A stretch of DNA of 64,000 nt, taken from IMG/VR virus record IMGVR_UViG_3300033571_014591, positions 4,185-68,184 of that record. One strand, written 5' to 3'. Source of the DNA: a virus. The notes under the pieces are model-generated. The model worked only from the letters and a program-made list of their open reading frames with translations. It did not search any database and was not told the origin of the DNA. The position numbers and the translations under genes were made by a program. Positions 3,641 through 26,921 of the stretch are shown here, in pieces; positions within the stretch are counted from its first letter, which is position 1, and every line of letters begins with the position of its first letter.

Positions 3641-4257
3641 TAAGCGTTCTTCTGGAATGCGCTAACGAAGTAGCGAACCTTGCCGTTGGCAAACCAGCGC
3701 TTGCTGGAGTCAAACTCGTCCTTGATCCAGGACTGGGGATTGCCGTTGGCGTCCTTGGGGAAGTTCTCGGCCCCAGTGGTGTTCTCCTGCGTGTCCTTGT
3801 TGTAGGCCTCCCAGACGAGCTGGAACTGGAACGGACGGCCTACTGCGGTCTTGAGGATGGCGCGGAGTTCAGCCTCGCTCTTGGGACGGGCATCAATGCC
3901 GCACGCACGGAGGAAGTCCATGACCTGCGAGCCGTTGCGCTTGGCGTACTTCTTTGAGGAGAGGCGGGTGAAGCGGACCTGATAGCCATTGGCCTGTGGG
4001 TCCATGATCTCAATGCTGTCGAGGACGACCTTCAGGTAGCCCTCCTGTGTGCGGCCGAAGGCGTTGTTGGGGCCGGTGACATCTGTGCCGTCATCGGGCA
4101 GCGATGTCAGACGACCGGTGTAGCGCCCTTCAGCGGGAGGGGCGAAGGACTTTGTTGGACCAGCAGAACCGCCATCCTCGTAGTTGTCGAAGTCGAGAAT
4201 GTCGAAGGGGGTGAGGTCCATCTGCGCTACGTTTGCATCCATTTTTCTAATCTCCAA
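3640..4257 (-). CDS. Putative ssDNA-binding protein (DUF669-like)
   Basis: PAEGRY motif and beta-rich sequence; follows the AAA ATPase and Cas4-like nuclease as in Sak4-type recombination modules. Confidence 0.6.
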   Translation of the reverse strand: MEIRKMDANVAQMDLTPFDILDFDNYEDGGSAGPTKSFAPPAEGRYTGRLTSLPDDGTDVTGPNNAFGRTQEGYLKVVLDSIEIMDPQANGYQVRFTRLSSKKYAKRNGSQVMDFLRACGIDARPKSEAELRAILKTAVGRPFQFQLVWEAYNKDTQENTTGAENFPKDANGNPQSWIKDEFDSSKRWFANGKVRYFVSAFQKNA

Positions 4258-4294
4258 TTAAAGTTAACAAAGACGACAAAGAAAGAAGGTGAAA

Positions 4295-5206
4295 TCAGAG
4301 TCCAAGGCGGCGTTTGATTTCGTCTTCCGCTGCTGACTGCCGTTTATCGAGCAGCTCCAAGACTGTGACCAGTGAGGCTGGCTCAATCTTCTGTGGTACT
4401 GCAACCGCCGTGCCAGATAGTGGCACCCGGCTGTTTGAGATGCCCTGAGCTAGACCCTTGGACTGCATCTCAACGTGTCGATCAGTATACAGCACGTGCT
4501 TGGCTGCCTGACCGGGTAAAACTTCGACGCCAATGCGGAAAGTGTACTTGAACCAGCGGGGGACTTCGCCTGCTTGGGCCTTGCCTGCCGTCTGGGGGCC
4601 GACAACCCCGCCGTTGGCGTCATCTTCACCTCGCCGGTCGCCAGCCGTCCAGAGCACGATGCCGGGGAGGAACTGGCTCTGCGTGGACTTCTCAAAGACC
4701 TGCTGCTGGACGACTGAGTAATGCGCCATGTTGTTGCTGCCGATCTTGAGATCTCGGTCGCCGTTGACGCCCTTGACGGTAAAGCTGAAGGCACCCCCGC
4801 CGCCGACATTGACGCCCTTGGAGGCTGCGTCCGATAACCAAGACATTTCGGCGTCAGCCATGGAGGTCATGCCCTCAAAAGCGTACAGGCCGATCTCGGC
4901 ATCAACGCCAGGAGCCCACTTGCCGTCAACGAGCTTGTCGCCGCGCACTGCGTGGTCAATCCAGCTGAAGGGTTCACCGAACATGGGGATTGCGTCGATG
5001 ATGCCTAGCTTAACATAAGGCTTGATTGTTTCCCAGCCGCCTCGGTCTGCACTGTAGAGGCGAGTGCGAAGCTTGCGAGTTTTGAAGATGTATTCGGCCA
5101 GTTCACCAATCTGGGCCGTCTTGCCTGCACCAGTGGGGCCAAACAGGAGGATCGTGTTGTTATCGCTGACGACGATTTTGTTGGCGACGTGGTTTGTGAG
5201 TGACAT
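4295..5206 (-). CDS. AAA/RecA-like ATPase (Sak4/AAA_24-like)
   Basis: Walker A LLFGPTGAGKT; gene context. Confidence 0.75.
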   Translation of the reverse strand: MSLTNHVANKIVVSDNNTILLFGPTGAGKTAQIGELAEYIFKTRKLRTRLYSADRGGWETIKPYVKLGIIDAIPMFGEPFSWIDHAVRGDKLVDGKWAPGVDAEIGLYAFEGMTSMADAEMSWLSDAASKGVNVGGGGAFSFTVKGVNGDRDLKIGSNNMAHYSVVQQQVFEKSTQSQFLPGIVLWTAGDRRGEDDANGGVVGPQTAGKAQAGEVPRWFKYTFRIGVEVLPGQAAKHVLYTDRHVEMQSKGLAQGISNSRVPLSGTAVAVPQKIEPASLVTVLELLDKRQSAAEDEIKRRLGL

Positions 5207-7888: not shown

Positions 7889-8545
7889 TTAAACTGCGCG
7901 GAGCCAGTTAATCTGGCCCTTCTTGAGGTTCTTGCTGCCGTGGTAGACGAGTCCAATCTTGAGCTCACCGTTGATGGCAGGTGAGTCGTTGATGTTGCCG
8001 TCAATGTAGCCAGCGGCGATACGGTCACTGTCGGTGGCGAAGATTCTCGAATGTGATTTAGTTAAATCGATGTCCTTGTCCATGATGCCGCCAGCAGACT
8101 GGATAATCTGCAGATTGGACGGCACTCCATTGAAGTTCAGGTGCAGCGACTTCGTGTAGGCGTAGAACTTCTTCTCCGGGAAGAGTTCTGCCAGCTTAAT
8201 CCACACGTTCAGGTAGGCCTGATTGAAGAAGTCACCTGAATCGTGCAGCCGGATGGAGGTCTGCTTGATCTGCTTGAGGTCAGCAATGGCCTTGGCCCGG
8301 AAGTCTTTGAGGCTCTTTCGGATGATGCCCAGGTTGAATTCTCTGGTGGCTGCCACGGAGGGCATCACGTAGTAGCCTTGTCGGGCGTAGCAGACAGTGG
8401 CGCAGCCCCCGGCTTTGGGGCACACCGTGAAGCCGTCTGCGGAGCGAAAGGCTGGCAGGTTGAAGCTGACGGTGTTGGTTTTCTTCAGCTTGCTGTTGTT
8501 GAAGGACCATTTTAGGTTCAGTTTAGATTTCATGGTTGTGTTCAC
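7889..8545 (-). CDS. Gp88-like protein (radical-SAM-like Cys cluster)
   Basis: NSKL, FNLPA, CPKAGGCATVCYA, RLHDSGDF, YAYTK. Confidence 0.8.
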   Translation of the reverse strand: MNTTMKSKLNLKWSFNNSKLKKTNTVSFNLPAFRSADGFTVCPKAGGCATVCYARQGYYVMPSVAATREFNLGIIRKSLKDFRAKAIADLKQIKQTSIRLHDSGDFFNQAYLNVWIKLAELFPEKKFYAYTKSLHLNFNGVPSNLQIIQSAGGIMDKDIDLTKSHSRIFATDSDRIAAGYIDGNINDSPAINGELKIGLVYHGSKNLKKGQINWLRAV

Positions 8546-10471: not shown

Positions 10472-10745
10472 TTGGCCACATTTGGCCAGTCCGTGGCCAA
10501 TTTTGCTGAAATCATCAGATTTGCTGAATAAAAACGCGATTGGCCACGCTATTGGCCATTTTCAGGATTTGGCCAGTCACTTTCAAATTTCCTAATGCTT
10601 TCATCGATTTGACCCCCAAAAACGTGGCCAATTTCATTTCCAGAATTCTTTGGCCAATTGGCCAGCTCACTTGGCCAACTCGCCAAAACATTAGGAAAAC
10701 CACCACATTGGCCTACTGGCAGTGTTGGCCAGGCCAAGTGGCCAC
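10472..10745. repeat. Cluster of 12 TGGCCA palindromes; candidate replication origin
   Basis: Exact TGGCCA at about 10473, 10483, 10494, 10541, 10553, 10570, 10625, 10651, 10659, 10672, 10726 and 10739, with AT-rich spacers, in an intergenic gap downstream of the helicase. Confidence 0.8.
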
Positions 10746-11015: not shown

Positions 11016-11861
11016 TTAATCCTTCACTCGCCACCGGCGAGCAGTTCTGGCGCTGACGCCAAAGCGCTCGGCCACGGCGGTATCGATTTCCTTAAACTTT
11101 AAGCCCTTCTGGGTTAAATTATCAATTAACTCATCAGCCTGCTCAACCTGGTCATGAGTAGTAAACGTGCCGTCGTCCTGCTGGAAGATCCGCAGCTCCT
11201 CTTCAATGTCGCTACGTGCCTCAAATTTGAGACGTTTCTTTGTCATGTGAATGAGACAGTCAACCGCACCTGCCACACTCGACGCCCCTCTAGCCTTAGC
11301 TTCTTGGCCTTCTTGGATATTCTTGGCCTGATGGGTCAGGATCACCATAGCTGCCGGGTGGGTTAAATTGACAAATGTGTCATAAATAATAGCCATCTCA
11401 TCGTTATCGTTCTCCTTACAGCGGTGCATGCGGCGAAACGTGTCAATAATGACCAGCACAGGTTTAATGCGGTCAATCTCAGCCTTCACCCACATCAGGC
11501 ATTCCCTTGTCCTGATATCAAAGGGCATGGGCATATCTTCCATCTCACGGTCCATGATGTAGACATTATCCCGTGCCTTCTGACTGTTGACGTTTTTCAG
11601 GTAATTTTTAATCCACAAGCCCCGTGGGGTGTCGAGCTGGATGTACAGCACTGGCCCATGCTGACCAATCGCTTGGCCCAGATAATGTGTAATGGCATCA
11701 TCTGCCACGGCTTCAGCCAAGCTCAAAGCCAAGAAGGACTTACCAATCTTCTGGGCTGCAAACAACAGTGCAGCTCCGCTTTTGGGAACAATGCCGTCCC
11801 ACAACCACACCTCTTCTTTCTCTTGGAGTTTCTCGTACTCAGTAATTGAATAGGCTGGCAT
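11016..11861 (-). CDS. RepA/AAA_25-type RecA-fold helicase with C-terminal HTH
   Basis: WLWDGIVP, Walker A AAQKIGKS, VLYI, Walker B VIIDT, ENDN, RGASS...VD; C-terminal VAERFGVSARTARRW. Confidence 0.85.
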   Translation of the reverse strand: MPAYSITEYEKLQEKEEVWLWDGIVPKSGAALLFAAQKIGKSFLALSLAEAVADDAITHYLGQAIGQHGPVLYIQLDTPRGLWIKNYLKNVNSQKARDNVYIMDREMEDMPMPFDIRTRECLMWVKAEIDRIKPVLVIIDTFRRMHRCKENDNDEMAIIYDTFVNLTHPAAMVILTHQAKNIQEGQEAKARGASSVAGAVDCLIHMTKKRLKFEARSDIEEELRIFQQDDGTFTTHDQVEQADELIDNLTQKGLKFKEIDTAVAERFGVSARTARRWRVKD

Positions 11862-12613: not shown

Positions 12614-12699
12614 TGGTGCGCCCAGCAGGAGTCGAACCTGCACGACCGTAAGGCCAGCAGATTTTAAGTCTGCAGTGTCTGCCGTTCCACCATGAGCGC
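12614..12699 (-). tRNA. tRNA-Leu(UAA), type II, CCA encoded
   Basis: GCGCTCA/TGGGCGC acceptor stem, TGGTGGAACGG D region, GCAGA-CTTAAAA-TCTGC anticodon arm, long variable arm, GGTTCGACTCC, ACCA end. Confidence 0.95.
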
Positions 12700-14716: not shown

Positions 14717-17267
14717 GGATAAACTCTCCAGTCTTTAAGTCCAGCCTGAACCTCACGTCCAGTTGACCCTGATATAGGGTAATGAAGCCCACATCGTGAA
14801 TAACCAAGAGCGGCCAATAGTTATACACTCCGCTGCCACTCCAGCTCACAAGGGGAGTTTCACTGCCCTCATAGATTGCCTCTGCGACTGACGGCTTAAA
14901 GTACCCAGAAGGTACAAACACTGAACGACTAAGGTACTTATTAGCTACACCGTCCACAGTGAACTGCACATGAACCCCAATGACTTGCTTAAGATCATGG
15001 TTAATCGTGAAATTGCACTGTGCCTGCTGCACTGTAGTAAACGAGGGCACTGAAGAGTTAATATTCTTCCATGCAATGTTATCTCCAGGATTCACCTTAA
15101 TCGGCGGCCATGAGCTAACATCATGAGATTTATGACTACCGCTCGGCATGTTCTTAAACGAAGGCACAGGCTTCACATAAGGCGTTAAATCCTCATCCTC
15201 GTCGTAATCTTCACCGTCATCGTCATCTTCGCTAGGGTCATCGTCGTCATCACTAGTGCTTGACCCCATTATCTTGTACTTCGTGGTGCACTCACCGTTC
15301 TCAGCCCACCCAAGTGTAGAGAAGCAAGTAACGCCGCTTTTCTGATCAGAACAAGTGCGCCCCACAGTTTCCTCTTCAGTGAAGTCATACTTTGTATGGC
15401 ACAATGGGCAGATGGCACCTGTGTAATCCTTAAACTGCTCAGGGAGCTCAAGGATAGAGCATGCATAATTATCAGCTGGGGCATTCTTCTGAGCATTGCC
15501 CATATACACAGTTTGGTCTACACTACTCTTGGCTAACTGTACCTGAAGCTTGCCGCCAGGTTTTGCTTCAATCACTGAGCACTTGCCCCACTCAGCAATC
15601 AGCTCATCTACAGCACTGCCCAGATCAGTTCGCTTCATCTTGTACATGCATGCAGCCGCCACAGACAGCGTAATCAGTGACTGCGACGATGCAAGGTCAA
15701 ACCAAGACTTCTCGATGAACTTATTGAGCCACCAGCCACCATTGTGAGCCTGATTGACAGCAACATTCAGCGCGCTCACAACCTTAGCCACTGCCTCATC
15801 TGACGGCTGATTGATCAGCTGCAGAATAGCTGCATCAAGATCAATGATGCTCTGCGTGCAGCGTGCCCACGCCTTGCCGCCGTATGAGCTGCTCCACTTA
15901 AGGTTTTCAAACATCCACTGAGCTGTGCCCAACGTATTGCGGCTGCCCATGAAATCCTTCAGGGCCACCCTGTAGACAAACCCACGCATTGAGCCCATAT
16001 CAGTGAGCTTATGGCGTGCCTCACCGTGCGATGCAGCCATGCCAGCTCGCATCATGATTGATGCACTGACGCCCAGCCAAAAACCATGATCAGCACTCAT
16101 GGCACCAGCATTATGCAGCGTAGTCATCATGCTAATCAGTGCTGCATCAATCTTCAGGACATCAGATGACTTTGTTAGCCCCTTCAGCTCAAGAGGTATC
16201 ACAGCACCGCAACCCAAACCGCGAATAACAGATTGCGGATCCGGCGTAGGTGTTACTGATACAGCCTCCAGCACCTCACCGATGCTTGGACGACGCGATG
16301 TAAAGCACGGCACCTTGTTGTAGAGACAGTGCACACCGTAGTGACTAATAAGCGTGCCGCCCAGCTTCACCACCACTGTACCTGGGCTGATAGTCTTTAC
16401 TTGCTTCTCCCATTCGAGCAGATCACCCTCAGCATCAATGACTGCTGTGACACGAACAGGATGCGGCACATAATCAGCACCCACAGCGCTTGGAATGCGT
16501 ACACCAGAGCGAATCTGTGTGAAGAAGGGGCGCGTGACTTCATTAGTTAGCACCACCTCCACATACGGATCCTCATCGGGCTTAATCCCTGCACGTGTTG
16601 TCAGTGCATTTGCGCTGTCTTCATTGAACCCGCTGCCCACTAGAGGAATAGAGATGCTCTCATAGCCAGCCGTAGCACCGTCATGGTTTGGGCCAACTGC
16701 CATGCGCGACGGTGTAATGATGACGTTGTACATTGCATCCACAAACGGTAGCAGCAGCAATTCTGCCGCATGCTCTTCGTCAGCTTCGTTGGCTGCATTG
16801 AAGATATGCCGAATCTGTGCAGCAAAGTTCGCCAAACGCTCATCGTAGGTAAGAATGCCACCACTCTTGAACTCTACAATGCGTGATTCCTCAAAGCCGT
16901 GGCGAGCACGCACAGGGCAAGGGCGCACAAACAACCGATGAATACCCTTACCAACTGCAGCTTTCACCACTTCCTCGATATCGCTATCCTCGAGGACAAT
17001 GAAATAGGGATTAGGAACATTCAATCCCCTATGCGCCAGTGCCACAAAACCCTTAGCCTTCTGAGTGCGTGTCCTCAGATGCTTGTACTTCATTGCAGTC
17101 TTGGAGTCGAACACACCCAAGTCAATAAAGCAGCAACTTGGCGTGTGACAGACTGCACAAACATTGCACAGTGGCATGTCACACTCAAGACAATGCTTAA
17201 TCTTGCTAGACCTCAGCGGGGGAGCAGCCACGTTTCCTGCAAGTGGAACTGATGTGTTAGTTTGCAT
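14709..17267 (-). CDS. Large PEP-utiliser/PPDK-like protein (ATP-grasp-like region, phospho-His swivel domain, unknown C-terminal domains)
   Basis: KAKG...L...GLNVP, FVRPCP and TQIR resemble the PPDK nucleotide-binding domain; PGTVVV..GGTLISHYGVHC...VPC resembles the PEP-utiliser mobile domain. Confidence 0.65.
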   Translation of the reverse strand: MQTNTSVPLAGNVAAPPLRSSKIKHCLECDMPLCNVCAVCHTPSCCFIDLGVFDSKTAMKYKHLRTRTQKAKGFVALAHRGLNVPNPYFIVLEDSDIEEVVKAAVGKGIHRLFVRPCPVRARHGFEESRIVEFKSGGILTYDERLANFAAQIRHIFNAANEADEEHAAELLLLPFVDAMYNVIITPSRMAVGPNHDGATAGYESISIPLVGSGFNEDSANALTTRAGIKPDEDPYVEVVLTNEVTRPFFTQIRSGVRIPSAVGADYVPHPVRVTAVIDAEGDLLEWEKQVKTISPGTVVVKLGGTLISHYGVHCLYNKVPCFTSRRPSIGEVLEAVSVTPTPDPQSVIRGLGCGAVIPLELKGLTKSSDVLKIDAALISMMTTLHNAGAMSADHGFWLGVSASIMMRAGMAASHGEARHKLTDMGSMRGFVYRVALKDFMGSRNTLGTAQWMFENLKWSSSYGGKAWARCTQSIIDLDAAILQLINQPSDEAVAKVVSALNVAVNQAHNGGWWLNKFIEKSWFDLASSQSLITLSVAAACMYKMKRTDLGSAVDELIAEWGKCSVIEAKPGGKLQVQLAKSSVDQTVYMGNAQKNAPADNYACSILELPEQFKDYTGAICPLCHTKYDFTEEETVGRTCSDQKSGVTCFSTLGWAENGECTTKYKIMGSSTSDDDDDPSEDDDDGEDYDEDEDLTPYVKPVPSFKNMPSGSHKSHDVSSWPPIKVNPGDNIAWKNINSSVPSFTTVQQAQCNFTINHDLKQVIGVHVQFTVDGVANKYLSRSVFVPSGYFKPSVAEAIYEGSETPLVSWSGSGVYNYWPLLVIHDVGFITLYQGQLDVRFRLDLKTGEFILG

Positions 17268-17643
17268 GCTTGTTCACCTTCACATTCAAGTCACGATGAA
17301 TTACTTTTACTTCAATTCCCTGGTCAGCTGCCCACTTTGCTAGCAGCTCAACGATAGCGACCGATCGATGCCTGCCACCATGACAGCCAATGGTGAGGTT
17401 ATGACCGTACATCCTCAACTGGAACGTCAGATTGTCAATCAATGCCCGTGTTCGCTTGCACCGCATCAGGTAATCCTGAATCTCTGTATGCGTGCCGTCA
17501 AGCGCACGATATGCCTTAACGCGCCACGGATTGATTACCGTGTTAACAACATTGATGTTCTTGGTGAGGTTAAAAGTATAGTTTGGATCATGCTCAATTT
17601 TAGGCACGCCATTCTTCACTGAATAACTCATGAGTGTGATCAT
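17257..17643 (-). CDS. Stand-alone RapZ C-terminal-domain protein
   Basis: LMSYS, NP...LDG, TIGCHGGRHRSVAIVE, HRDL. Confidence 0.85.
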   Translation of the reverse strand: MITLMSYSVKNGVPKIEHDPNYTFNLTKNINVVNTVINPWRVKAYRALDGTHTEIQDYLMRCKRTRALIDNLTFQLRMYGHNLTIGCHGGRHRSVAIVELLAKWAADQGIEVKVIHRDLNVKVNKHAN

Positions 17644-17792: not shown

Positions 17793-18143
17793 CTACCACA
17801 GACTTATCTTTTGCCATGAATGACCCTTGGATTCTATCCAGACAAACCGAATCCCCCTTTTGGTTACACGATTAGCGCAATCAGCACAAGGAAACGAAAC
17901 AACAACTGCACCGTTTCGTTTTCGTCTACCGGCAATGGCAATAGAAGCACCCTCTAATCTGGATTTATTGCTTCTACGGATTGCATGCGCTTCGGCGTGT
18001 TCACCAAACCCGTCAGGGCCAGCAGAATTCCATCCCCATGCAAACACTCCATGCTTATCAAAGATGACCGCAGCCACCTGAACTGCACAAATGCTACGCT
18101 TGGTAAGATCAACTGCTAGCTCTGACGGGCTCAATTTCTTCAT
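17793..18143 (-). CDS. Cytidine/dCMP deaminase-family protein
   Basis: VAAVI, GWN, HAE, PCADC. Confidence 0.85.
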   Translation of the reverse strand: MKKLSPSELAVDLTKRSICAVQVAAVIFDKHGVFAWGWNSAGPDGFGEHAEAHAIRRSNKSRLEGASIAIAGRRKRNGAVVVSFPCADCANRVTKRGIRFVWIESKGHSWQKISLW

Positions 18144-18156
18144 GATTTAACTCAGA

Positions 18157-18552
18157 TTAGTGCACCTTATCGTTACCGGGCACCATGATGGCTTCACTAA
18201 TAGTGCTGCCCAGCTCAGTATTAAATGCCGTCTTTGACTTGGCCTTCAGGTTCATCTCTGCATATTTCTGTTGCAGCTCTGCCACATATGCGGAATCCTT
18301 CATCAGGTTGTCCACATCTTTAAGCAGCTTAACCATAGTTTCAGTCTCAAGCCCAACAACCTTATGGTACATGGCTGCAAACAACATCGACGCCACCACA
18401 CCAGTACGTGTAGTACCCACAAAGATACCCACCATGTCTGTCCTGGCAATGACACGTTCAACGTCCATGTCAGACGGCAGATACTTCAGTGTCAGTTCTT
18501 CAAGACCCTTAGCGACACGCTCGGATTCTGCGTTCTTTTCCTGCTCAGTCAT
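18157..18552 (-). CDS. Hypothetical protein
   Basis: GAGG RBS; track ORF. Confidence 0.6.
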   Translation of the reverse strand: MTEQEKNAESERVAKGLEELTLKYLPSDMDVERVIARTDMVGIFVGTTRTGVVASMLFAAMYHKVVGLETETMVKLLKDVDNLMKDSAYVAELQQKYAEMNLKAKSKTAFNTELGSTISEAIMVPGNDKVH

Positions 18553-19560
18553 GTTTACCTCTTAATGAAGATGCGAATAAACGGGGCCACCGTCATGATG
18601 GCCCCTACAATTGCACTGCACTCCACACACTTGCGCTCAGTCATCATATGAGTCGTCCTCATCATAGTTGACACGCATTTGGCGCTTGGGCTTCATCTGG
18701 ACATGACATGTACAATCACAGCGAAACCGCTTACCATCAGGCTGCATAAGCACCTGTTGGCAGTTCTCATGATGATTACCCTTACACATTGCAGACTTCA
18801 TCAGATCAGCCCCCACGAAATGACAACAAACAACAGCGAGAGGAGGAATTCGACAAACAGCACGAATGTAATCAAGGCAGACGGCACATTTGAGTGCAAC
18901 ACGGCTGCAATACATATTGTTACTAGTGCTGCAAGCCACACTGCCGATACCAGCATCATCAACACAAGCTACTCCTGCTTTGTATTACGAGTGCTCAGGT
19001 AATGCTCAGTGCAGAGCCACCCATGAGTAACTGACTGATTCTGTCTGGCTTCCTTTGAGCACTTAATTGTGCCTTCAGGTGTCTTGCGAACATGAATGCA
19101 TTTAGAGCCATGAATATTTGCAGACTGAGCCACGTTATCGCCTCTCTCTCTGGATATGTAGTGCTTTACACCGGCTGCACCAAATTGGATACAGCCGTGT
19201 CTTTGACTGAGGTGCTTTACGCGCATTCATGGCATAAATTGCCGTGCGCACGTGCGACTCAGACTTGAACGCTTTACGGATGCATTTGATCACTGATTAC
19301 ACCCTCTTGTATCTTATTGGAATTACGCCACCCTCAATGTGAGCTTTGCAGCGCCCATAAGGGCCAATCTTAGGATCCTGGAAGCGCCTCAGTGCAGGCT
19401 TACCACATACATTGCATGTGGCAGACTTCACCTCATAGGCCATCTTCACGTCAATTTCTAGCTGCTTGGGCATCAGATGAGTTTTCTTAAACATCCTGGT
19501 ATTAGGCGCACTCATCCTTCGCACTGAGAGACCGCAACCACTAATTCTGCCTCTAATCAT
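18549..19560 (-). other. Run of short, mostly Cys-rich early ORFs (boundaries uncertain)
   Basis: Track ORFs 18637..18939, 18969..19226 and 19297..19560 contain CxxC/CxxH pairs. Confidence 0.4.
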
Positions 19561-19719
19561 GACAACCTCTACAGATACTCATCCGGAGGATTAGAATCAC
19601 TATTAAATGCCAGAATGATTGCAATCCCTACCAGTGCCACCACACCAATCAAGATAACTAAATCTTGCATTCAGCACCTCACTATAAGTTTGGCGCAAGC
19701 CAAACGGCCCATCTGAACA

Positions 19720-19772
19720 CCATGCACTCATCATGCATTAAGTATGCACTAATCATGCACTCATCATGCACT
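19720..19772. repeat. Five imperfect 11-bp tandem units (consensus ATGCACTCATC)
   Basis: catgcactcat-catgcattaag-tatgcactaat-catgcactcat-catgcact. Confidence 0.75.
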
Positions 19773-19775
19773 AGC

Positions 19776-20012
19776 TTAAACATTCAACTAGCTAATCAAG
19801 AGCTATATAAACCCTGGCCGCTGAATCGCAGGGGCGCACCACATCAGTATTCCTAGACTGACGCTTCATTTTACTTTGGGTTTGTTGATTGCAGCCCATT
19901 TCATCAGCTACACAGCTTTGGTAATACTGATTCAAATGATGCTATAACCACCAATATCATGGGTCGAGTATGAATTGAGCGGTTGCCCTTGATTAGCTAA
20001 TTGAGTGTTTAA
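19776..20012. ncRNA. Candidate structured RNA closed by a ~28-bp imperfect inverted repeat
   Basis: 19776-19803 pairs with 19985-20012; inner stem ATCAGTATT/AATACTGAT. Confidence 0.45.
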
Positions 20013-20047
20013 ACGGATGCCCCACTGTTGCAGCAGGGCATCACAAA

Positions 20048-20290
20048 TTAACTCACACGCTTGTTATCAGTAGGCAGATTGGCACCATAGCCGCGCCTAT
20101 GATTGACAGACTGAATGTACTGATGCTGCTGCTCTGAGATGATCTGAATATGACTACCAGTCTTATGTGGGGTAATCATATGACCACGTAGTGGCTTTAC
20201 ATCTGAGCACTGAATACACACTTTCGTATGTGGTAGTGCCTCAATGCGCTTGGCTGATATCACAGTAGAGCATTTAATGCATGTTCTCAT
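20048..20290 (-). CDS. TraR/DksA C4-type zinc-finger protein
   Basis: CIKC..I...RIEALP....CIQC signature; GAGG RBS. Confidence 0.8.
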   Translation of the reverse strand: MRTCIKCSTVISAKRIEALPHTKVCIQCSDVKPLRGHMITPHKTGSHIQIISEQQHQYIQSVNHRRGYGANLPTDNKRVS

Positions 20291-20304
20291 GTTGACCTCA
20301 CACC

Positions 20305-20766
20305 TTACTGGGTAATTCTGGTGTTGAATCCCTTGTAGCTTTTGCTGCCTTCTCGCTGATCTCTTACAGTTAAAACTGGAAGAGGATCTGTCACCACTAC
20401 AGGGAAACTCTCAACACTGCCGTCTCGATTGTGTCTGTAGACTACACTGTAATCAGCAGCACAGGTGTCACACAGGTAACCCTTTACATAATCAATAGTA
20501 GGGATACGAAACTCAGTCACAACCGGCTGATAGGTAACATGCTCAGTCTTTACTTTCTGCCGTTTGATGTCACTGAATCCTCTAATCACCTTGCCACGAT
20601 AGCAAAGGCCGGGATTCACTTCAGTAGAGCAGCAACAGCACACAAGGCCATGATTAACCTTAAGGCCTGGGGAAACCTGAATTACCTTACGCGGCGGTTT
20701 TGCAGTATTGATTTTGCGCCAATCCCACTTTCGAGCTAGCTGCTCTTCGGTCAACTTGTCTGCCAT
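20305..20766 (-). CDS. Hypothetical protein with split zinc ribbon
   Basis: GAGGTG RBS; CCCC and CDTC. Confidence 0.6.
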   Translation of the reverse strand: MADKLTEEQLARKWDWRKINTAKPPRKVIQVSPGLKVNHGLVCCCCSTEVNPGLCYRGKVIRGFSDIKRQKVKTEHVTYQPVVTEFRIPTIDYVKGYLCDTCAADYSVVYRHNRDGSVESFPVVVTDPLPVLTVRDQREGSKSYKGFNTRITQ

Positions 20767-20774
20767 GTTTGCAC

Positions 20775-21200
20775 CTCATTAGAGGATTCACTTTAAGGTG
20801 AACTATCTAATCAAATGCAGCGGGGTTTTATGTTATTGGATAACCCCGCGAACCTCATGCAGTGCTTTTCGCCACTGCAACCGACAGCGTTTTCTTATAC
20901 AGTGGTTACTAAGGCTGTAACTCACCACCGTAATATGTGCATTAACTCCACATACAGAGTGTTTCGACTAAGCGCTTAGTCTAGCTAGTTTTGAGCGGGA
21001 ACTAGCAAACCCGCGATTATCAGCGTCATCCTGTCACCTCAGCGACATTCTAGGCTAATTAGTTAATATTCTTATGTGTGGATTCACCCTTGGGCTAGCC
21101 ACCATTAATTACATATTGTGCCACCACGATAATATGTAATTAATGCTAGTTAGTCCTGGCGAACGCGCACCGTCAATCCGCTGACGCCTTGTGTCCGCTT
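20775..21200 (-). ncRNA. Candidate multi-hairpin/pseudoknot non-coding RNA
   Basis: No ORF of 60 aa or more; consecutive stems, an H-type pseudoknot and a perfect 15-bp inverted repeat at 21103-21145. Confidence 0.45.
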
Positions 21201-21210
21201 TCGAGGACGC

Positions 21211-21281
21211 TGGCATGCGGCTTGCATGGAGCCGACCTGGATAGTAAGTATCCAAGCCGGCCCTATGGCATGAATTGTGCT
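21211..21281 (+). promoter_or_regulatory. Two sigma54 -24/-12 motifs
   Basis: TGGCATGCGGCTTGCA at 21211-21226; TGGCATGAATTGTGCT at 21266-21281. Confidence 0.6.
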
Positions 21282-21687
21282 ACTCAGTAGGCGTCAAAGA
21301 ATTGTCTACGATGTTGTTAACTACGCGACGAACGAGCTTACCCGACTTGGCGGTCGGCTTTACCTCATGGGTAAGCCTATACTCTGCCTTATCGCATAGA
21401 CTCGGGAACATCGACCATACTTCAGCGTGTGAGAGAATTTCGGATTGGAACTCTTCGAGCTGTTCCTGAGTGCTGAACTTAACACCGCGCGGGATACCGG
21501 GAGAAAACGTGACTGAAACATCTTTCGTTGTTTTGTCGGTTTCGAGCCCTGCCCAAATGACGCACTCAAGGGTCAAACCATTGTCAAAGGTGACAATTGC
21601 CTTCGCTGTCTGGCAGTATTTCCGCCCATATTTTTCGCCAGCTTCAGGCCTATCAGGAAGGGTCATCAAAACATCTTCAATGATCAT
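21280..21687 (-). CDS. Hypothetical early protein
   Basis: Track ORF, 135 aa, first gene downstream of the control region. Confidence 0.65.
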   Translation of the reverse strand: MIIEDVLMTLPDRPEAGEKYGRKYCQTAKAIVTFDNGLTLECVIWAGLETDKTTKDVSVTFSPGIPRGVKFSTQEQLEEFQSEILSHAEVWSMFPSLCDKAEYRLTHEVKPTAKSGKLVRRVVNNIVDNSLTPTE

Positions 21688-21758
21688 AACTTAACCTATA
21701 CTTAAAGGTTTATGCGTTCATCGTGGCGGGAGTGCCGCGAAGCCGCACCGGAGCCTAG

Positions 21759-21774
21759 AGCATCGAGCATGCCA
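21759..21774 (-). promoter_or_regulatory. sigma54 -24/-12 motif upstream of ORF 21280..21687
   Basis: Minus strand TGGCATGCTCGATGCT, about 70 bp before the ATG. Confidence 0.6.
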
Positions 21775-22264
21775 GCCAGGGAGCTTCGCCCCAAAACGTG
21801 AGATTTTGCTAGGAAAATCGCTCAGTTTCGCTTTGGCTATACCTTGCGATAGAGGCGGAAATGCGTATGGTTTCGATACGCAAGAAAAGCGAAAGGTGCA
21901 GCGATGAACTCTGCCGTTTGGCTGTAAATCGTTGAGCCGCATGGGGTTAGCTGCTGTGTATGGAATCGCTACAGGTGGTGTGTAAAAATTGCTTGGTCAA
22001 TTTTGCCCATTAGAGGGTGGCTTTCGCCTCGTTTTCGCTCCCCCCAGTATCTACCCATTCCAGGCCTAACGATCGTTCAATGGCGGTGCCTCAGAACGCC
22101 GGCAAAAGGCATTCTGAGAGCTGTCCTAACCGGCGTTTTGCAGGTCATTCCGGCGACAGCGGCAAATCCAAGATATTGGAGAGAGCAATCCAATGTTTTG
22201 GTGCCGGATAAGGATTTAGTTAACGTGGGTGTCAATGGATTGACAATAGAGCGTGCGCGCACGT

Positions 22265-22444
22265 AGCAAGGCGCATGCCAGGTTTTGACATGCATAAGGT
22301 GTGCCATAGGGGATTGTATGCATGATGCATGCCAGCCAGGTGCAAGCAAGGCGCATGCCAAGATGATGATGCATGCATAAAGGGTGCCAAGTTCATCTGG
22401 TATGCACAAAGGGTGCCAAGATCCGGTATGCATCCCCCATGCCA
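22265..22444 (-). promoter_or_regulatory. Tandem array of seven sigma54 -24/-12 motifs (period 26-29 bp)
   Basis: 16-mers starting at 22265, 22291, 22319, 22345, 22374, 22403 and 22429 all read TGGCAY-N5-[T/A/G]TGCW on the minus strand. Confidence 0.8.
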
Positions 22445-22514
22445 TTAGGTCATACCCCAGAACTCGCTTCAGGTCAAATGCCCTATCCTCAGCCAAATGC
22501 CCTAATCCTCCATC

Positions 22515-22597
22515 TGGCACAAACCTTGCATGCGTAGGGCAACTGCCCCAGGCGCATGGCATGGCTGTTGCATGCGTCGATTGGCACAACAATTGCA
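22515..22597 (+). promoter_or_regulatory. Three sigma54 -24/-12 motifs pointing rightwards
   Basis: TGGCACAAACCTTGCA (22515), TGGCATGGCTGTTGCA (22557), TGGCACAACAATTGCA (22582). Confidence 0.8.
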
Positions 22598-22804
22598 TGT
22601 CTAGGTCATCTGCCCTAGTTGTCGCAAGGGTGACGGCGAGGCGAAGTTAAAGTGTACCGGATCCCCATAACTCTATTTCATATCGCCCATATGGTTCAGC
22701 AATTTCTCCATAGAAACCCTCTAATTCCCTAACAATTTCACCATTTCCCAGCTCGTTCCATTTCAACCCTGAATCTCCACCCTATGGTTCAGCTCAAGCA
22801 CCCC

Positions 22805-23230
22805 TTAAATCTCCTTCTCTGGTCCCTTCACCGCCTTCTTCGCCCCCGCAGCCGCTTTTGCGCCTGTTTTCCTCCCATCCAGCGCCAAAATCCTCCCCCA
22901 CGGCGCAGCATCATAGATGTCCTGCATGGTGCCAGTTTCAGCAATCTGCTTTAACTTCTCTGCCCTCTTACTGCTCTTCTTAATTACCAGCCCCTGAAAC
23001 TCAGGTATATCCTTAATACTCATCAAAAACTCATAGCCACCCACCAGCGCCTGCCCATTCGAGTTCAAAACAAGCTCCTCCGAGATAATCTCATTGTGGG
23101 CAACCCAAGGCTTGCTGATCCACATCACATAATGTTTCGTGCCGATCGAAGACTGCTCGCAACACAGCACCACACCCTCCTCCAGCGCCTTCAACTTCAG
23201 TTCCTTAATCACCTTCTCAATATGTGTCAT
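22805..23230 (-). CDS. Hypothetical protein
   Basis: GAGGAG RBS; track ORF. Confidence 0.65.
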   Translation of the reverse strand: MTHIEKVIKELKLKALEEGVVLCCEQSSIGTKHYVMWISKPWVAHNEIISEELVLNSNGQALVGGYEFLMSIKDIPEFQGLVIKKSSKRAEKLKQIAETGTMQDIYDAAPWGRILALDGRKTGAKAAAGAKKAVKGPEKEI

Positions 23231-23318
23231 CTGAGTCTCCTCGACTAAACTGTTCTATTTATGCTACTATGCAGCATTACTTGACGCCCGACCGACCACT
23301 TTAAGCTACGGACACCCT

Positions 23319-23888
23319 ATGTCAAAGAACCATGATGCAATTCCTGTGCCAGATGTCGAGGTCTACGCCCGACTCGTCGGCAAGATCCAATACACCTGCC
23401 CCAACTGCAGTCAGGCCTATCCGCTTAAACTGGTTCACTGGCGTAGGGCCGACCTCTACTGCCAACGCTGCCACACCAAATTCCAGCTTGGGCTCGGGTT
23501 TAGCTCAACCGCTACCTCCTCGTCCTTCATTATGGGCAAGTGGAACTCCTACACGGCCAACCGCATCAACCCTGAAGGCACCCACTACGACGCAGCCAAG
23601 GTCTACGGCACCATCGAATTCCAGTGCCCCTCCTGTCTGCACCCCCAGCGAGGCTTCTGCGCCCACGACGGGCGACTCTCCTGCGAGTCCTGCTCAGAGT
23701 CCTTCTACGTCTCTGCACTGCTCTACAGGCTCCCTAAGGTCTCCCGCCTTAAGCTGAAGGCCCCTTTCGACTCCATTGTTAAAGGTTTAAATCCAGATGC
23801 GTCTACCAAGACTCCTAAACCCATTCATGCTTCGTCGCCTGATTCGCGCCCAGGAACGCCAAGCGGACGCGCTCGAAAGGATAGCTAA
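23319..23888 (+). CDS. Duplicated zinc-ribbon protein
   Basis: Two repeats: A++.G.I...CP.C...L.C..C...F. Confidence 0.7.
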   Translation: MSKNHDAIPVPDVEVYARLVGKIQYTCPNCSQAYPLKLVHWRRADLYCQRCHTKFQLGLGFSSTATSSSFIMGKWNSYTANRINPEGTHYDAAKVYGTIEFQCPSCLHPQRGFCAHDGRLSCESCSESFYVSALLYRLPKVSRLKLKAPFDSIVKGLNPDASTKTPKPIHASSPDSRPGTPSGRARKDS

Positions 23889-24039
23889 AATTGTCAGCTT
23901 TGAGTTTGGACGAACTTCAGAAATTATCGAGCAATACCCCGAAGAAGAAGACGACATCATCTACTCAACTGATGAAGAGACCTTCTACAGACAGCTCGCA
24001 GACAGAAGCCGTCTCTCTCACACTCCCGAAGACGAATAG
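23797..24039 (+). CDS. Hypothetical protein
   Basis: Track ORF; QERQADALERIA heptad. Confidence 0.5.
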   Translation: MRLPRLLNPFMLRRLIRAQERQADALERIAKIVSFEFGRTSEIIEQYPEEEDDIIYSTDEETFYRQLADRSRLSHTPEDE

Positions 24040-24637
24040 GAGCGCCCTGGAGCAATTCGAGGCAGCCATTGGCGGTCGGGACGCCTTGGTCGAAACCCTC
24101 GAATTAGCCCAGCTCGACAAGAAGCAGGAACACCTCCTGAACCTGCTCCTTGACCCTCGACGCCAGAAGGACACCATTAACACCATTGCCCGTGACGCGG
24201 GAATGAAGCCAGCAGGAGTCATCGAGCTCTTCCGCTCTGCAACCTTCGCCATGGCCCATGCCCTCGCCATGTCCAAGATGGCCTCTGCCCTACCCGCCGT
24301 TGTAGATGACATTGCAGCCAAAGCCGTAGACTCCAAAATCGAATGCCCCACCTGCTTTGGGCAAAAACAAATCAACCACGTTGATTGCCCAACCTGCTTC
24401 GGTAAGGGCGAAGTCATGCGCTACAGCGACCTGGACCGCCAAAAGATCCTCCTCGAATCTGCTGGAGTCACCAAGAAGGGCGGCGGCGTCAATGTTAACG
24501 TCAGCCAAGCTGTGGGCATTGTCAACCCCGGGTCGTTCTTCTCTAACTTCGTCAAAGGCTCCGACGCTGACGCCTACTCAATTGAGCCTATCGACGCTGA
24601 CGTCATTACCCCTGAGGATCCTTCCCATGGCAGCTAA
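23891..24637 (+). CDS. Putative terminase small subunit with DnaJ-like zinc finger (start possibly 23972)
   Basis: HTH-like TINTIARDAGM, CPTCFG..CPTCFGKG, C-terminal VNVNVSQ and IDADVI; lies upstream of the large terminase. Confidence 0.55.
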   Translation: MSALSLDELQKLSSNTPKKKTTSSTQLMKRPSTDSSQTEAVSLTLPKTNRSALEQFEAAIGGRDALVETLELAQLDKKQEHLLNLLLDPRRQKDTINTIARDAGMKPAGVIELFRSATFAMAHALAMSKMASALPAVVDDIAAKAVDSKIECPTCFGQKQINHVDCPTCFGKGEVMRYSDLDRQKILLESAGVTKKGGGVNVNVSQAVGIVNPGSFFSNFVKGSDADAYSIEPIDADVITPEDPSHGS

Positions 24638-24821
24638 GGTAGACGAAGCCGTATTCAAACGCATTATGCAGCTTAAAGCTCTTGGCCTCACCGACAAGGT
24701 CATCTCCATCCGCCTTGGCGTTTCAGAGCGCACCATCAGGGTCTACACCCGAGCGGCTAAAACCGGCTTAAAGCCCTACGAGGCACCTTCAGCAGATGTA
24801 TCATCCAACGGTATCGAGTAA
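24627..24821 (+). CDS. Small HTH DNA-binding protein
   Basis: GLTDKVISIRLGVSERTIR; GAGGA RBS. Confidence 0.7.
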   Translation: MAAKVDEAVFKRIMQLKALGLTDKVISIRLGVSERTIRVYTRAAKTGLKPYEAPSADVSSNGIE

Positions 24822-26064
24822 GCGGCTCGACAATCTAGCCTCAGCCATCCGCAAAACAAGCGACCCGGCCTTCCAGTTCATCGATCTCCCCGTAGATCGA
24901 CGCGAAGGCATGATTGCACGCCTCAATTCCATCTGGAACGCCGAAGAGGGCACCCTCAAGCGCCCTTTGGGACTGGACGAAGAGGCCTTCATTCGCCATG
25001 AAATCAACCGCTGCAAGGGCGACTTCTACTATTGGCTTACGTCTTACTGCAAAATTAAGTCAAAAAACGCCGAACTCGTCAAAGTCAAGCCAACTCACGT
25101 CCAGGATCTCTTCCTGCAGCGCATTGGAGAGGTCGAAAAGGCCTCAGTCTTCGACAAATCCGGCGACGGCATCCTCTTCGCGGTCCTCAAGGCTCGTCAG
25201 CTGGGCGTTTCCACCATCTCAGAGTGCATTATTTCGCACCGGATCGTCTTCTACGGCTCCATCGCGGCCCTAATCGCCTCTGACGTCGATGACCACACCA
25301 TTAACCTCTACGAAATGGTCATCAGAGTCCTCGAAAACCTCCCGTGGTGGATGGTTCCGCGCTCGACTGACCCCAAAAAGGACTACCGGGCCAAAAACCA
25401 GCTGATCTCCTTCTACGATCAGGACTCAATCATCAGATTTGGCTCTGGCAAGAACATGCAGGGCTCAAAGTTCCAGGAAAAGGGCTCAATCGGCACCGGC
25501 CAGACCCTCCATCAAGTCCACATTTCTGAGTTTGCCCTCTGGGCCAACGCCGAACAGATCTACGACTCACTGCTCCCTGCTGTGCCCATGAGTTCCAAGA
25601 CCTTTCTGGTGCTTGAATCAACCGCCAAGGGGCGCAACAACGAGTGGCACAAGACCTGGGAGCGAGCCAAGCGTGGTTTAGGCCGCCTTAAGCCCATTTT
25701 CTTCCCTTACTACACTGATCCCAACGACTACCGCCTGCCAGCACCCGTTGATTGGGTTCCATTAGCCCACACTGTCAACCATGCTGAGCGTGTAGCTGCC
25801 ACATCTCACAAATGGGTGGGGAAAACAGTCATTCTCACCCGCGAACAGATGTTTTGGTACGAGCAAACCTATGCCCAATACAAGGACTCACGTATGCTCT
25901 ATAAATTCCTTGCCGAATACTGCGCCGACGACCTTGAAGCCTTCCAGGCGTCCTCCCAGGGCGTCTTTCCTGCCGAACTCATCGATGATATTCGCCAAAA
26001 GGTCACCAAAGACCCGGTCCTCATCGATATTCGCCCAAAAATGTACCGTGAGGTCGGTCAATGA
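24796..26064 (+). CDS. terL: Terminase large subunit, ATPase domain
   Basis: VLKARQLGVST Walker A, VHISEFA Walker B, LESTA coupling motif, FFPYY, EY..D..EAF. Confidence 0.9.
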   Translation: MYHPTVSSKRLDNLASAIRKTSDPAFQFIDLPVDRREGMIARLNSIWNAEEGTLKRPLGLDEEAFIRHEINRCKGDFYYWLTSYCKIKSKNAELVKVKPTHVQDLFLQRIGEVEKASVFDKSGDGILFAVLKARQLGVSTISECIISHRIVFYGSIAALIASDVDDHTINLYEMVIRVLENLPWWMVPRSTDPKKDYRAKNQLISFYDQDSIIRFGSGKNMQGSKFQEKGSIGTGQTLHQVHISEFALWANAEQIYDSLLPAVPMSSKTFLVLESTAKGRNNEWHKTWERAKRGLGRLKPIFFPYYTDPNDYRLPAPVDWVPLAHTVNHAERVAATSHKWVGKTVILTREQMFWYEQTYAQYKDSRMLYKFLAEYCADDLEAFQASSQGVFPAELIDDIRQKVTKDPVLIDIRPKMYREVGQ

Positions 26065-26921
26065 GCTTAACTGCCCTTGAAAAGCTGAAAAACGCCAACC
26101 TCGGTGTCCAAATGAAGGTCATCGAGGCCTCTTCCTACGATTGGGAGGCCTGGAACGGGCGATTACTCTGTTTTGAGCCCCCTGAACCCGGAGAAATCTA
26201 CGCCCTCGGTGTAGACCCCGCAGAAGGCGTCAGAATGGATCGTTCTGTCTGCCAAGTCATCAAAATGGGCAACCTCAAGCACCCAGACGTCCAAGTTGCC
26301 GAGTTTGCCTGCGATTACCTCGATCCGGTTGACTTTGGGGCAGTTGTTGATGCCATTGGACGCTTCTACTGCGACCCAGACGGTACAGAGGCCTTCCTGA
26401 CACTCGAAATCAACGCCCCCTGCGGCGATACCATGATGAGCGACCTTAGGTTCCGCCTCGACTACGGAAACCTTTACATTCGTCGTAGTTATGATAGAGT
26501 TAACTCTACCTATACCAACACATACGGCTGGAGCACCAATAAAGCCTCAAGGCCCAAATTAATCGCCAGAGGCCTTCATGCTTTAACCTACGGGGACTTA
26601 ATTATCAACTCCCCCTATCTGCTCGATGAAATGTCGGACTTCCGCCGTGACCGCTTTGACGAAAAGCCCGAAGCACGTGTTGGTCGCCATGATGACCGTC
26701 TTATGGCTCTACTCATCGCCTACTACGGGGCGCACGACGACGAATGGATCTCAGGCGAAGACATCGGAGAACAACGCCGAGCCGCAGAGAAGGCCGGTCA
26801 GGTTATTGAAGTGAAAGCAGCTGTAGCTGAGCCGGGGCGCAAGGTCAGCTATCAGAATCGACCCATTACAGCTCGTCAGGCCAACCAGGAATGGGAAGAT
26901 AACTTTTTCGGCGCAGATTAA
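26061..26921 (+). CDS. Terminase large subunit, nuclease domain (separate ORF)
   Basis: YALGVDPAEG, DRS, LEIN, GWST, HDDRLMA; ATGA overlap with its own GAGG RBS. Confidence 0.9.
   Translation: MSLTALEKLKNANLGVQMKVIEASSYDWEAWNGRLLCFEPPEPGEIYALGVDPAEGVRMDRSVCQVIKMGNLKHPDVQVAEFACDYLDPVDFGAVVDAIGRFYCDPDGTEAFLTLEINAPCGDTMMSDLRFRLDYGNLYIRRSYDRVNSTYTNTYGWSTNKASRPKLIARGLHALTYGDLIINSPYLLDEMSDFRRDRFDEKPEARVGRHDDRLMALLIAYYGAHDDEWISGEDIGEQRRAAEKAGQVIEVKAAVAEPGRKVSYQNRPITARQANQEWEDNFFGAD

Follow-up and report, generated by a model that had tools for sequence, protein, structure and literature searches.

Ten close-packed sigma-54-type sites in the early control region of an uncultured phage: a possible battery of host RpoN promoters

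The DNA analysed here, referred to as the window, is a stretch of 64,000 nucleotides corresponding to bases 4185–68184 of an uncultured phage record of 68,184 bp (IMG/VR record IMGVR_UViG_3300033571_014591). Within 333 non-coding bp (22265–22597), it contains ten exact copies of the motif TGGCAY-N6-TGC (minus strand, seven; plus strand, three), which resemble the −24/−12 promoter element of sigma-54 (RpoN), an alternative sigma factor. Our preferred, albeit tentative, reading, to which we give somewhat less than an even chance, is that the ten repeats are sites of the host sigma-54 RNA polymerase holoenzyme and work mainly as a battery of enhancer-dependent promoters. It is ranked only narrowly above a reading of modest probability, in which the polymerase is held without firing and the sites act as a trap or roadblock.

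Ten sigma-54-type sites within 333 bp

All ten 16-mers listed in the original prediction were found at their positions, in two opposed blocks separated by a gap of 70 bp (Table 1). The minus-strand units start at 22265, 22291, 22319, 22345, 22374, 22403 and 22429, corresponding to start-to-start distances of 26, 28, 26, 29, 29 and 26 bp; the −12 element reads TTGCA in 3/3 rightward sites, which face the 3' end of gene 22805–23230(−). The pattern TGGCAYNNNNNNTGC was observed 18 times in the 64-kb window as compared to 2.26 occurrences expected. When 100 shuffled sequences were scanned with the same fixed pattern, the maximum was 6 and none reached 18. Even on the assumption that the 18 sites are spread evenly, the Poisson probability of ten sites falling within 333 bp is ~1e-17. 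Six of the eight sites outside the array are co-oriented with the local genes, and two lie 61–95 nt upstream of an ATG.

Between the units, identity is 100% in the eight bases of the core (TGGCA and TGC), as against 28% identity in the N5 spacer and 30% in the 12-nt flanks. Such a combination of an invariant core with near-random spacers and flanks argues against plain slippage. In seven orthologous arrays of another phage lineage, variable columns numbered 0 of 72 in the core versus 37 of 138 outside it (Fisher p = 4e-8). The array motif is under selection, and the earlier suggestion that selection on a protein-binding motif rather than simple slippage shaped the repeats agrees with both comparisons. 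One contig from a DNA sequencing run, possibly the source run, spans the array unbroken; it is silent on genome ends and on expression.

Resemblance of the motif to the RpoN consensus

In 10/10 units, TGGCAY is combined with TGC, and a distance of exactly 10 bp separates the dinucleotide GG from GC, as in sigma-54 −24/−12 elements. Sites from other phage contigs were pooled with a pattern that forced only TGGCAY and TGCW, which yielded 494 unique sites (loci L063 and L128 were left out of the matrix). The unforced positions of this pool agree with the RpoN holoenzyme consensus TGGCACnnTTnTTGC (PMC8743547): T precedes TGG with a frequency of 0.67, G occupies position 7 (0.66) and is followed by G or A, T is preferred at positions 9 and 10 (0.48 and 0.57), and position 12, directly before TGC, is T with a frequency of 0.87. 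The window units are somewhat weaker than the pool, with T before TGC in only 5/10 of them, C at position 6 in 5/10 and A after TGC in 8/10. In Escherichia coli, sites with ATGCA at −12 are still bound in vivo (PMC4591121). Judged by the free positions of the 494 sites, the motif is sigma-54-like beyond the bases searched for, in line with the original prediction. An NtrC-box reading of the minus-strand units (TGCAC...GGTGCC) was rejected by eye, as their spacing is one base short of the 17-bp box (PMC8743547).

Recurrence, spacing and orientation of arrays in other genomes

Pattern searches indicate that tandem sigma-54-type arrays are a phage feature. A tandem pattern of two sites 8–15 bp apart matched at least 120 viral contigs, as compared to 6 for a reversed control pattern, and a triple pattern matched at least 120 viral contigs versus 45 prokaryote contigs in 596 Gb. 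About 39 of these 45 proved to be in-frame coding repeats, of period 15, 24, 27 or 30, and about five resemble true arrays, all of them in metagenome bins. The coding-repeat matches (among L210–L254) sit inside long open reading frames (ORFs) of Actinomycetota, Poseidoniales archaea and others; a census of sigma-54 arrays must filter such 15-, 24-, 27- and 30-nt coding repeats as false positives. Of 167 arrays, 19 were removed as coding-like, on the criterion that each of their spacings was a multiple of 3 and that they had no more than two distinct 16-mers. After this filtering and the merging of near-identical arrays, 88 groups were retained, with arrays ranging from 3 to 10 strict sites; the ten sites of the window stand at the top of this size range. 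Their local density is far above that of any sampled bacterial genome.

In a search that allowed 24–31 bp equally, same-strand spacings peaked sharply at 26–29 bp (93, 67, 42 and 62 pairs); the extremes of the range, 24 and 31 bp, had 3 and 5 pairs, respectively. The sigma-54 start point lies 19 bp past the motif centre (PMC4591121), from which, together with the 26–29 bp period, it follows that each unit would begin at the start point of the previous one. The period can thus be read as one full promoter length (−26 to ~+1) and the array as a head-to-tail stack of whole promoters. Arrays of uniform orientation in the 88 groups have a co-oriented downstream gene in 33/49 cases (p = 0.02) and a divergent upstream gene in 41/53 (p = 8e-5), and the combination of both was found in 20/39 as compared to 25% expected, as judged from crude ORF calls of at least 90 aa. 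Face-to-face site pairs 18–21 bp apart occur in other phages. For the scattered sites of a 147-kb phage (L031), mapping against small genes was not used because the ORF calls were unreliable. A GP88 family (PF17338) protein is encoded in the window at 7889–8545 (−). In about nine other phage loci (L019:2997–3701, L051:3392–4093 and others), a gene of this family comes first or second on the downstream side of a sigma-54 array.

When array loci were joined by single linkage via any shared ORF, 124 of 144 loci fell, together with the window, into one component out of a total of 19. The carriers can therefore not all be called unrelated, and the claim of recurrence in separate lineages rests on four whole array-bearing phage genomes (57–148 kb, 41–53% GC) that share only a family-A DNA polymerase (BLASTP, E <= 1e-3).

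We regard it as improbable that the repeats are sites of a phage DNA-binding protein (iterons, terminase pac repeats, partition or repressor sites) that merely resemble the sigma-54 consensus. Such sites would suit a non-coding, repeated array located ~0.7 kb upstream of the packaging arm, as well as the weakly palindromic unit (TGCA ... TGCCA) and the frequent position of arrays at contig ends in other records. Against them stand the conservation of the core and of the sigma-54-like free positions in phages sharing no visible DNA-binding protein, the asymmetry between TGGCA and TGCA, which is kept in 10/10 units, unlike in a homodimer site, and the 26–29 bp period, which is not in helical phase. 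As to terminase repeats in particular, the large terminase (TerL) of this phage is only 20–28% identical to that of another phage (G004), yet both phages carry the sites, and the motif is common to phages whose terminases are either this distant or undetectably related, which speaks against a phage-specific reader.

An iteron origin at the array was likewise considered unlikely, as the period is not 21–22 or 31–32 bp and no replication gene is adjacent. Elsewhere in the window, 12 of the 29 copies of the hexamer TGGCCA lie within ~270 non-coding bases (10473–10744), adjoining the helicase/primase-like gene 11016–11861(−); by sequence, this cluster is a better, iteron-like candidate for an origin.

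Search for a phage-encoded reader or activator

No enhancer-binding ATPase (PF00158) was found in the 68,184-bp record at E <= 1, in a search that matched 14/14 control genomes, and a six-frame search of the record at the same threshold found no sigma-54 DNA-binding domain (PF04552). The earlier statement that no such ATPase was recognised hence holds for PF00158 across the whole record. PF04552 was not found at E <= 0.1 in five other array-bearing records either. Four of the five metagenome-assembled genomes with a true-looking array do encode PF04552, with the reservation that binning of phage contigs is unreliable.

Phages commonly redirect the host polymerase, and most early proteins of this phage are without a family match. 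Both points would be compatible with promoters that serve either an unrecognised phage specificity factor or a host polymerase modified so as to mimic sigma-54 recognition, as would the report of a protein from a Pectobacterium phage for which HHpred gave a weak likeness to sigma-54 (PMC7693777). We nevertheless consider this explanation very improbable, given the missing PF04552 matches and the lack of a shared candidate protein among the four array-bearing genomes. A conserved host factor suits these genomes better and is the simpler assumption, since they reveal no phage-encoded reader in common. Literature on rpoN in phage resistance was also consulted and set aside, since the effect described there acts via glutamine and RpoS, not via phage promoters (PMC8744999).

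Genome layout and neighbourhood of the array

Left of ~23230, the genes of the window are on the minus strand and form an early/replication arm, with products including a helicase/primase-like protein, an exonuclease, a deaminase, a RapZ C-terminal domain protein and many orphans. From 23319 rightward, plus-strand genes encode two zinc-ribbon proteins (23319–24637), the large terminase (as a pair of ORFs that overlap), the portal and a tail fibre. The array had been predicted to lie at the junction of the two arms; it is near the junction, but not exactly at the strand switch (23231–23318), since gene 22805–23230(−) intervenes before 23319. This gene looks real, as it is preceded by a GAGGAG ribosome site and by a sigma-70-like promoter (TTGACA-16-TAAAGT at 23325–23298, following the sigma-54-type site 23336–23351), and if so it places the array within the early arm. 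The ends of the record repeat; the terminal repeat of 87 bp resembles an assembly overlap, and the array lies ~26 kb from the record ends. A protein-binding ratchet on first-injected DNA, which had been proposed as one function of the array, is a putative role.

Table 1. Sigma-54-type sites and neighbouring features, in window coordinates
Feature	Position	Strand	Remarks
Two sigma-54-type sites	21211, 21266 (21211–21281)	+	at 3' end of 21280–21687(−), facing into the gene
135-aa early gene	21280–21687	−	first clear gene downstream of the leftward block
Single sigma-54-type site	21759–21774	−	~72 bp upstream of ATG 21687 of gene 21280–21687(−)
Seven sigma-54-type sites TGGCAY-N5-WTGCW, leftward	22265–22444	−	co-directional with the early/replication arm
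Gap between opposed blocks	22445–22514		70 bp; carries second-repeat copies AGGTCAAATGCCCTA, CAGCCAAATGCCCTA (family D4)
Imperfect palindrome GGKCA-NN-TGCCC	22472–22483 (gap), 22537–22548, 22604–22615		second repeat; the two right-hand copies fall within 22536–22617
Three sigma-54-type sites, rightward	22515, 22557, 22582 (block 22515–22597)	+	spacing 42, 25
141-aa gene	22805–23230	−	GAGGAG Shine-Dalgarno 7 nt before ATG; Lys/Ala-rich C-terminal tail
Zinc-ribbon protein gene	23319–23888	+	opens the packaging/structural arm; conserved in relatives; marks the syntenic position of the array
Single sigma-54-type site	23336–23351	−	upstream of gene 22805–23230(−)

The gap between the two blocks is a candidate regulator or enhancer site. 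The palindrome GGKCA-NN-TGCCC in it recurs twice further right, each time overlying the predicted start point of a rightward site; the window has further exact copies at no positions other than 17322 and 17762. When one mismatch is tolerated, the motif shows no enrichment across the window (19 versus 12.5 expected), so that only the local exact cluster is notable. The palindromes look operator-like, as for a putative dimeric regulator. At bacterial sigma-54 promoters, the activator site is located ~100–150 bp upstream (PMC7057263); the palindromes are closer than this classical enhancer distance and lie over the predicted start points.

The 141-aa protein, possibly DNA-binding, gave no family match and no usable ESM Atlas match, its Atlas model having a mean predicted local distance difference test (pLDDT) score of 0.37; the 135-aa protein likewise gave neither a family match nor a usable Atlas match. 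Sigma-70-like promoter matches are not enriched at 20700–23500 (3 versus 3.0 expected), and an Rfam scan of 19500–24000 returned only a chance-level microRNA match (21 bits versus a gathering score of 113).

Several other features of the record were recorded. The large terminase is split into 24796–26064 (ATPase part) and 26061–26921 (nuclease part), with an overlap of 4 bases; both halves adjoin in relatives too, and G004 has a single ORF of ~596 aa. The replication arm contains a tRNA-Leu gene (anticodon TAA) at 12614–12699 (−), the RapZ C-terminal domain protein at 17257–17643 (−; E = 7.5e-19) and, at 20048–20290 (−), a weak DksA/TraR zinc-finger match below the cut-off (E = 0.003). In bacteria, RapZ and DksA/TraR both touch regulatory circuits tied to sigma-54.

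Distribution among portal relatives

Near-identical cultured phages were not found, and TerL as a single query against viral contigs gave no match. Relatives were therefore gathered by portal alignment, which revealed many metagenomic relatives; 80 loci were taken, of which 74 were listed in the strict-pattern scan (L285 and L295 were excluded as partial matches, and the others missing from the list were overlooked) and 11 were inspected closely. Plus-arm genes are conserved among these relatives. For the minus-arm genes 17793–23230, including the 141-aa gene, none of the 80 portal loci yielded a homologue, and this block of small minus-strand genes appears as a hypervariable early region. Among cultured phages, a portal match (26.7% identity) was detectable only in those that infect Tunturiibacter, an acidobacterium; Tunturi_1 has one site in 63 kb.

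Clustered sites at the equivalent locus of related phages were found in part of the relatives. Upstream of the structural arm, three of the 11 inspected loci carry relaxed sites, five to seven in number: L257 (69% portal identity) has 5 left of the strand switch and 1 inside the plus arm, L264 (53%) has 7, and L283 (35%) has 6. The first plus-arm gene is conserved in L257 and L264, where the sites are located ~0.4–1.3 kb and ~0.6–0.9 kb upstream of it, respectively. Near the junction of L263, L265, L273, L275 and L277, in contrast, there are no such sites; the divergent junction of L263 is only ~120 bp long. Given this patchy occurrence, the array is an accessory which is gained and lost in this family, rather than a fixed part of it. 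In L264, at least 10 copies of GGGTCA/GGGTCG are located at 4190–4450, between the sigma-54 cluster and the first plus-arm gene, and form a second field of repeats.

Promoter battery or non-productive docking

If the sites are RpoN holoenzyme sites retained by selection in the early control region of the phage, one unit would equal one complete promoter from −26 to ~+1, packed as tightly as whole promoters permit. The seven leftward units would feed the early/replication arm, while the three rightward units might either drive transcripts, antisense or late-directed, through the 141-aa gene or obstruct those that leave it. Firing would depend on an activator which the phage does not visibly encode and which may be an enhancer-binding protein of the host or a phage factor that escaped recognition. 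What favours promoters is the bias of arrays toward co-oriented downstream genes, which a pure decoy does not predict. Support also comes from the period, which equals a full promoter, from the sigma-70-like matches at chance level, and from the sigma-54-dependent promoters of phage YuA. The original prediction had put forward, as one possibility, a decoy or sponge that titrates sigma-54; the orientation bias over the 88 groups is predicted by promoters and not by a pure decoy.

Non-productive docking, in which sigma-54 (as holoenzyme or alone) is held in closed complexes that never fire, appears less likely than not by a wide measure, although it accounts for several observations. It could serve as a sponge muting host sigma-54 responses, or as a roadblock or insulator around two early genes and between the arms. 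Opening of the sigma-54 closed complex requires an ATPase (PMC7057263), and this phage encodes none that we could detect. In E. coli, most sigma-54 sites are bound yet transcriptionally inactive, and sigma-54 can repress when its site overlaps another promoter; intragenic sites without effect on the overlapping genes, on the other hand, are described in the same source (PMC4591121). Genes 21280–21687 and 22805–23230 are both bracketed by convergent sites, sense upstream (21759 and 23336, respectively) and antisense at the 3' end, and convergent or face-to-face layouts recur in relatives and in other phages. A site density far above that of bacterial genomes, and the long distance of 578 bp to the first clear gene, would also be in line with docking. 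Besides the orientation bias, docking fails to predict a minimum period equal to the whole promoter instead of the 16-bp contact region, and many close relatives manage without the sites; a benefit to the phage is putative.

The promoter battery, too, is faced with a number of observations that weigh against it. The leftward units are 578–742 bp from ATG 21687 of the first clear gene, which is long for a promoter, and in 5/7 of them the base before TGC is A or G rather than T, which makes for weaker −12 elements. The three rightward sites, like those at 21211 and 21266, are directed at the 3' ends of minus-strand genes, an unusual placement for promoters. Face-to-face pairs and convergent sites cannot all fire productively; this applies also to L264 and L283, in which the sites are convergent, as compared to divergent in the window. 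The PF00158 ATPase was found neither in this phage nor in the five other array-bearing records (E <= 0.1), and no known upstream activator site was recognised. To this are added the five relatives without sites near the junction, the presence of a strict site upstream of the portal in only 11 of 74 scanned loci, several of which are short, and the crude ORF calls behind the orientation statistics.

Implications and comparison with known systems

To our knowledge, sigma-54 is the sole bacterial sigma factor which binds DNA stably yet needs an ATP-driven activator to start RNA synthesis. If many phages keep dense arrays but encode no activator, there may be a novel firing route, or the locked complex may be exploited as a trap or roadblock; either outcome would be a new mode of host takeover. 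As a wider proposal, which we consider doubtful, close-packed arrays may be a widespread, undescribed phage device for the capture of host sigma-54 polymerase, either as a pre-loaded magazine or as a trap or roadblock. A non-AAA+ phage factor, or any host activator that is active and acts from solution, would fire the magazine, whereas the trap or roadblock would silence host sigma-54 responses and insulate early genes. In the window, the 7 + 3 array and the four outlying sites would then bracket and gate the two first early genes. Arrays of this kind would mark early control regions of uncultured phages and hint at rpoN in their hosts.

The array shares with bacterial sigma-54 −24/−12 promoters the GG and GC dinucleotides 10 bp apart, the combination of TGGCAY with TGC and, in the pooled sites, the flanking preferences. 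Bacterial promoters of this type are single, whereas here ten units follow each other every 25–42 bp in two opposed blocks, and neither an activator gene nor a recognisable activator site was found.

A literature search returned single sigma-54 promoters in phage YuA but no account of sigma-54 arrays in phages, in agreement with the remark in the original prediction that no description of such a phage array was known. The Pseudomonas phage YuA has sigma-54-dependent promoters (Ceyssens 2008, as cited in 10.1101/2023.10.13.562163) and is similar in that this virulent phage relies on the sigma-54 of its host for part of its transcription, with an activator not known, from that source, to be phage-encoded. 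It has no detectable kinship with the phage studied here, for which there is no near match among cultured phages. The YuA study of 2008 reportedly described single promoters in the particle-formation and lysis region, and no arrays.

The inactive and intragenic sigma-54 sites of E. coli offer a parallel for holoenzyme that is bound without firing, at some sites antisense to genes (PMC4591121). Those sites are scattered singles inside genes, whereas the sites of the phage are clustered, non-coding and selected as a set. The promoters A1–A3 of phage T7 form a strong early promoter cluster at the leading end of the genome, and are comparable to the array as several host-polymerase promoters in tandem at the head of an early region. 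They differ in being sigma-70 promoters ~100 bp or more apart that fire without an activator. Compared with these systems, sigma-54-type sites themselves are known, and what appears undescribed is their dense, phage-specific arrangement.
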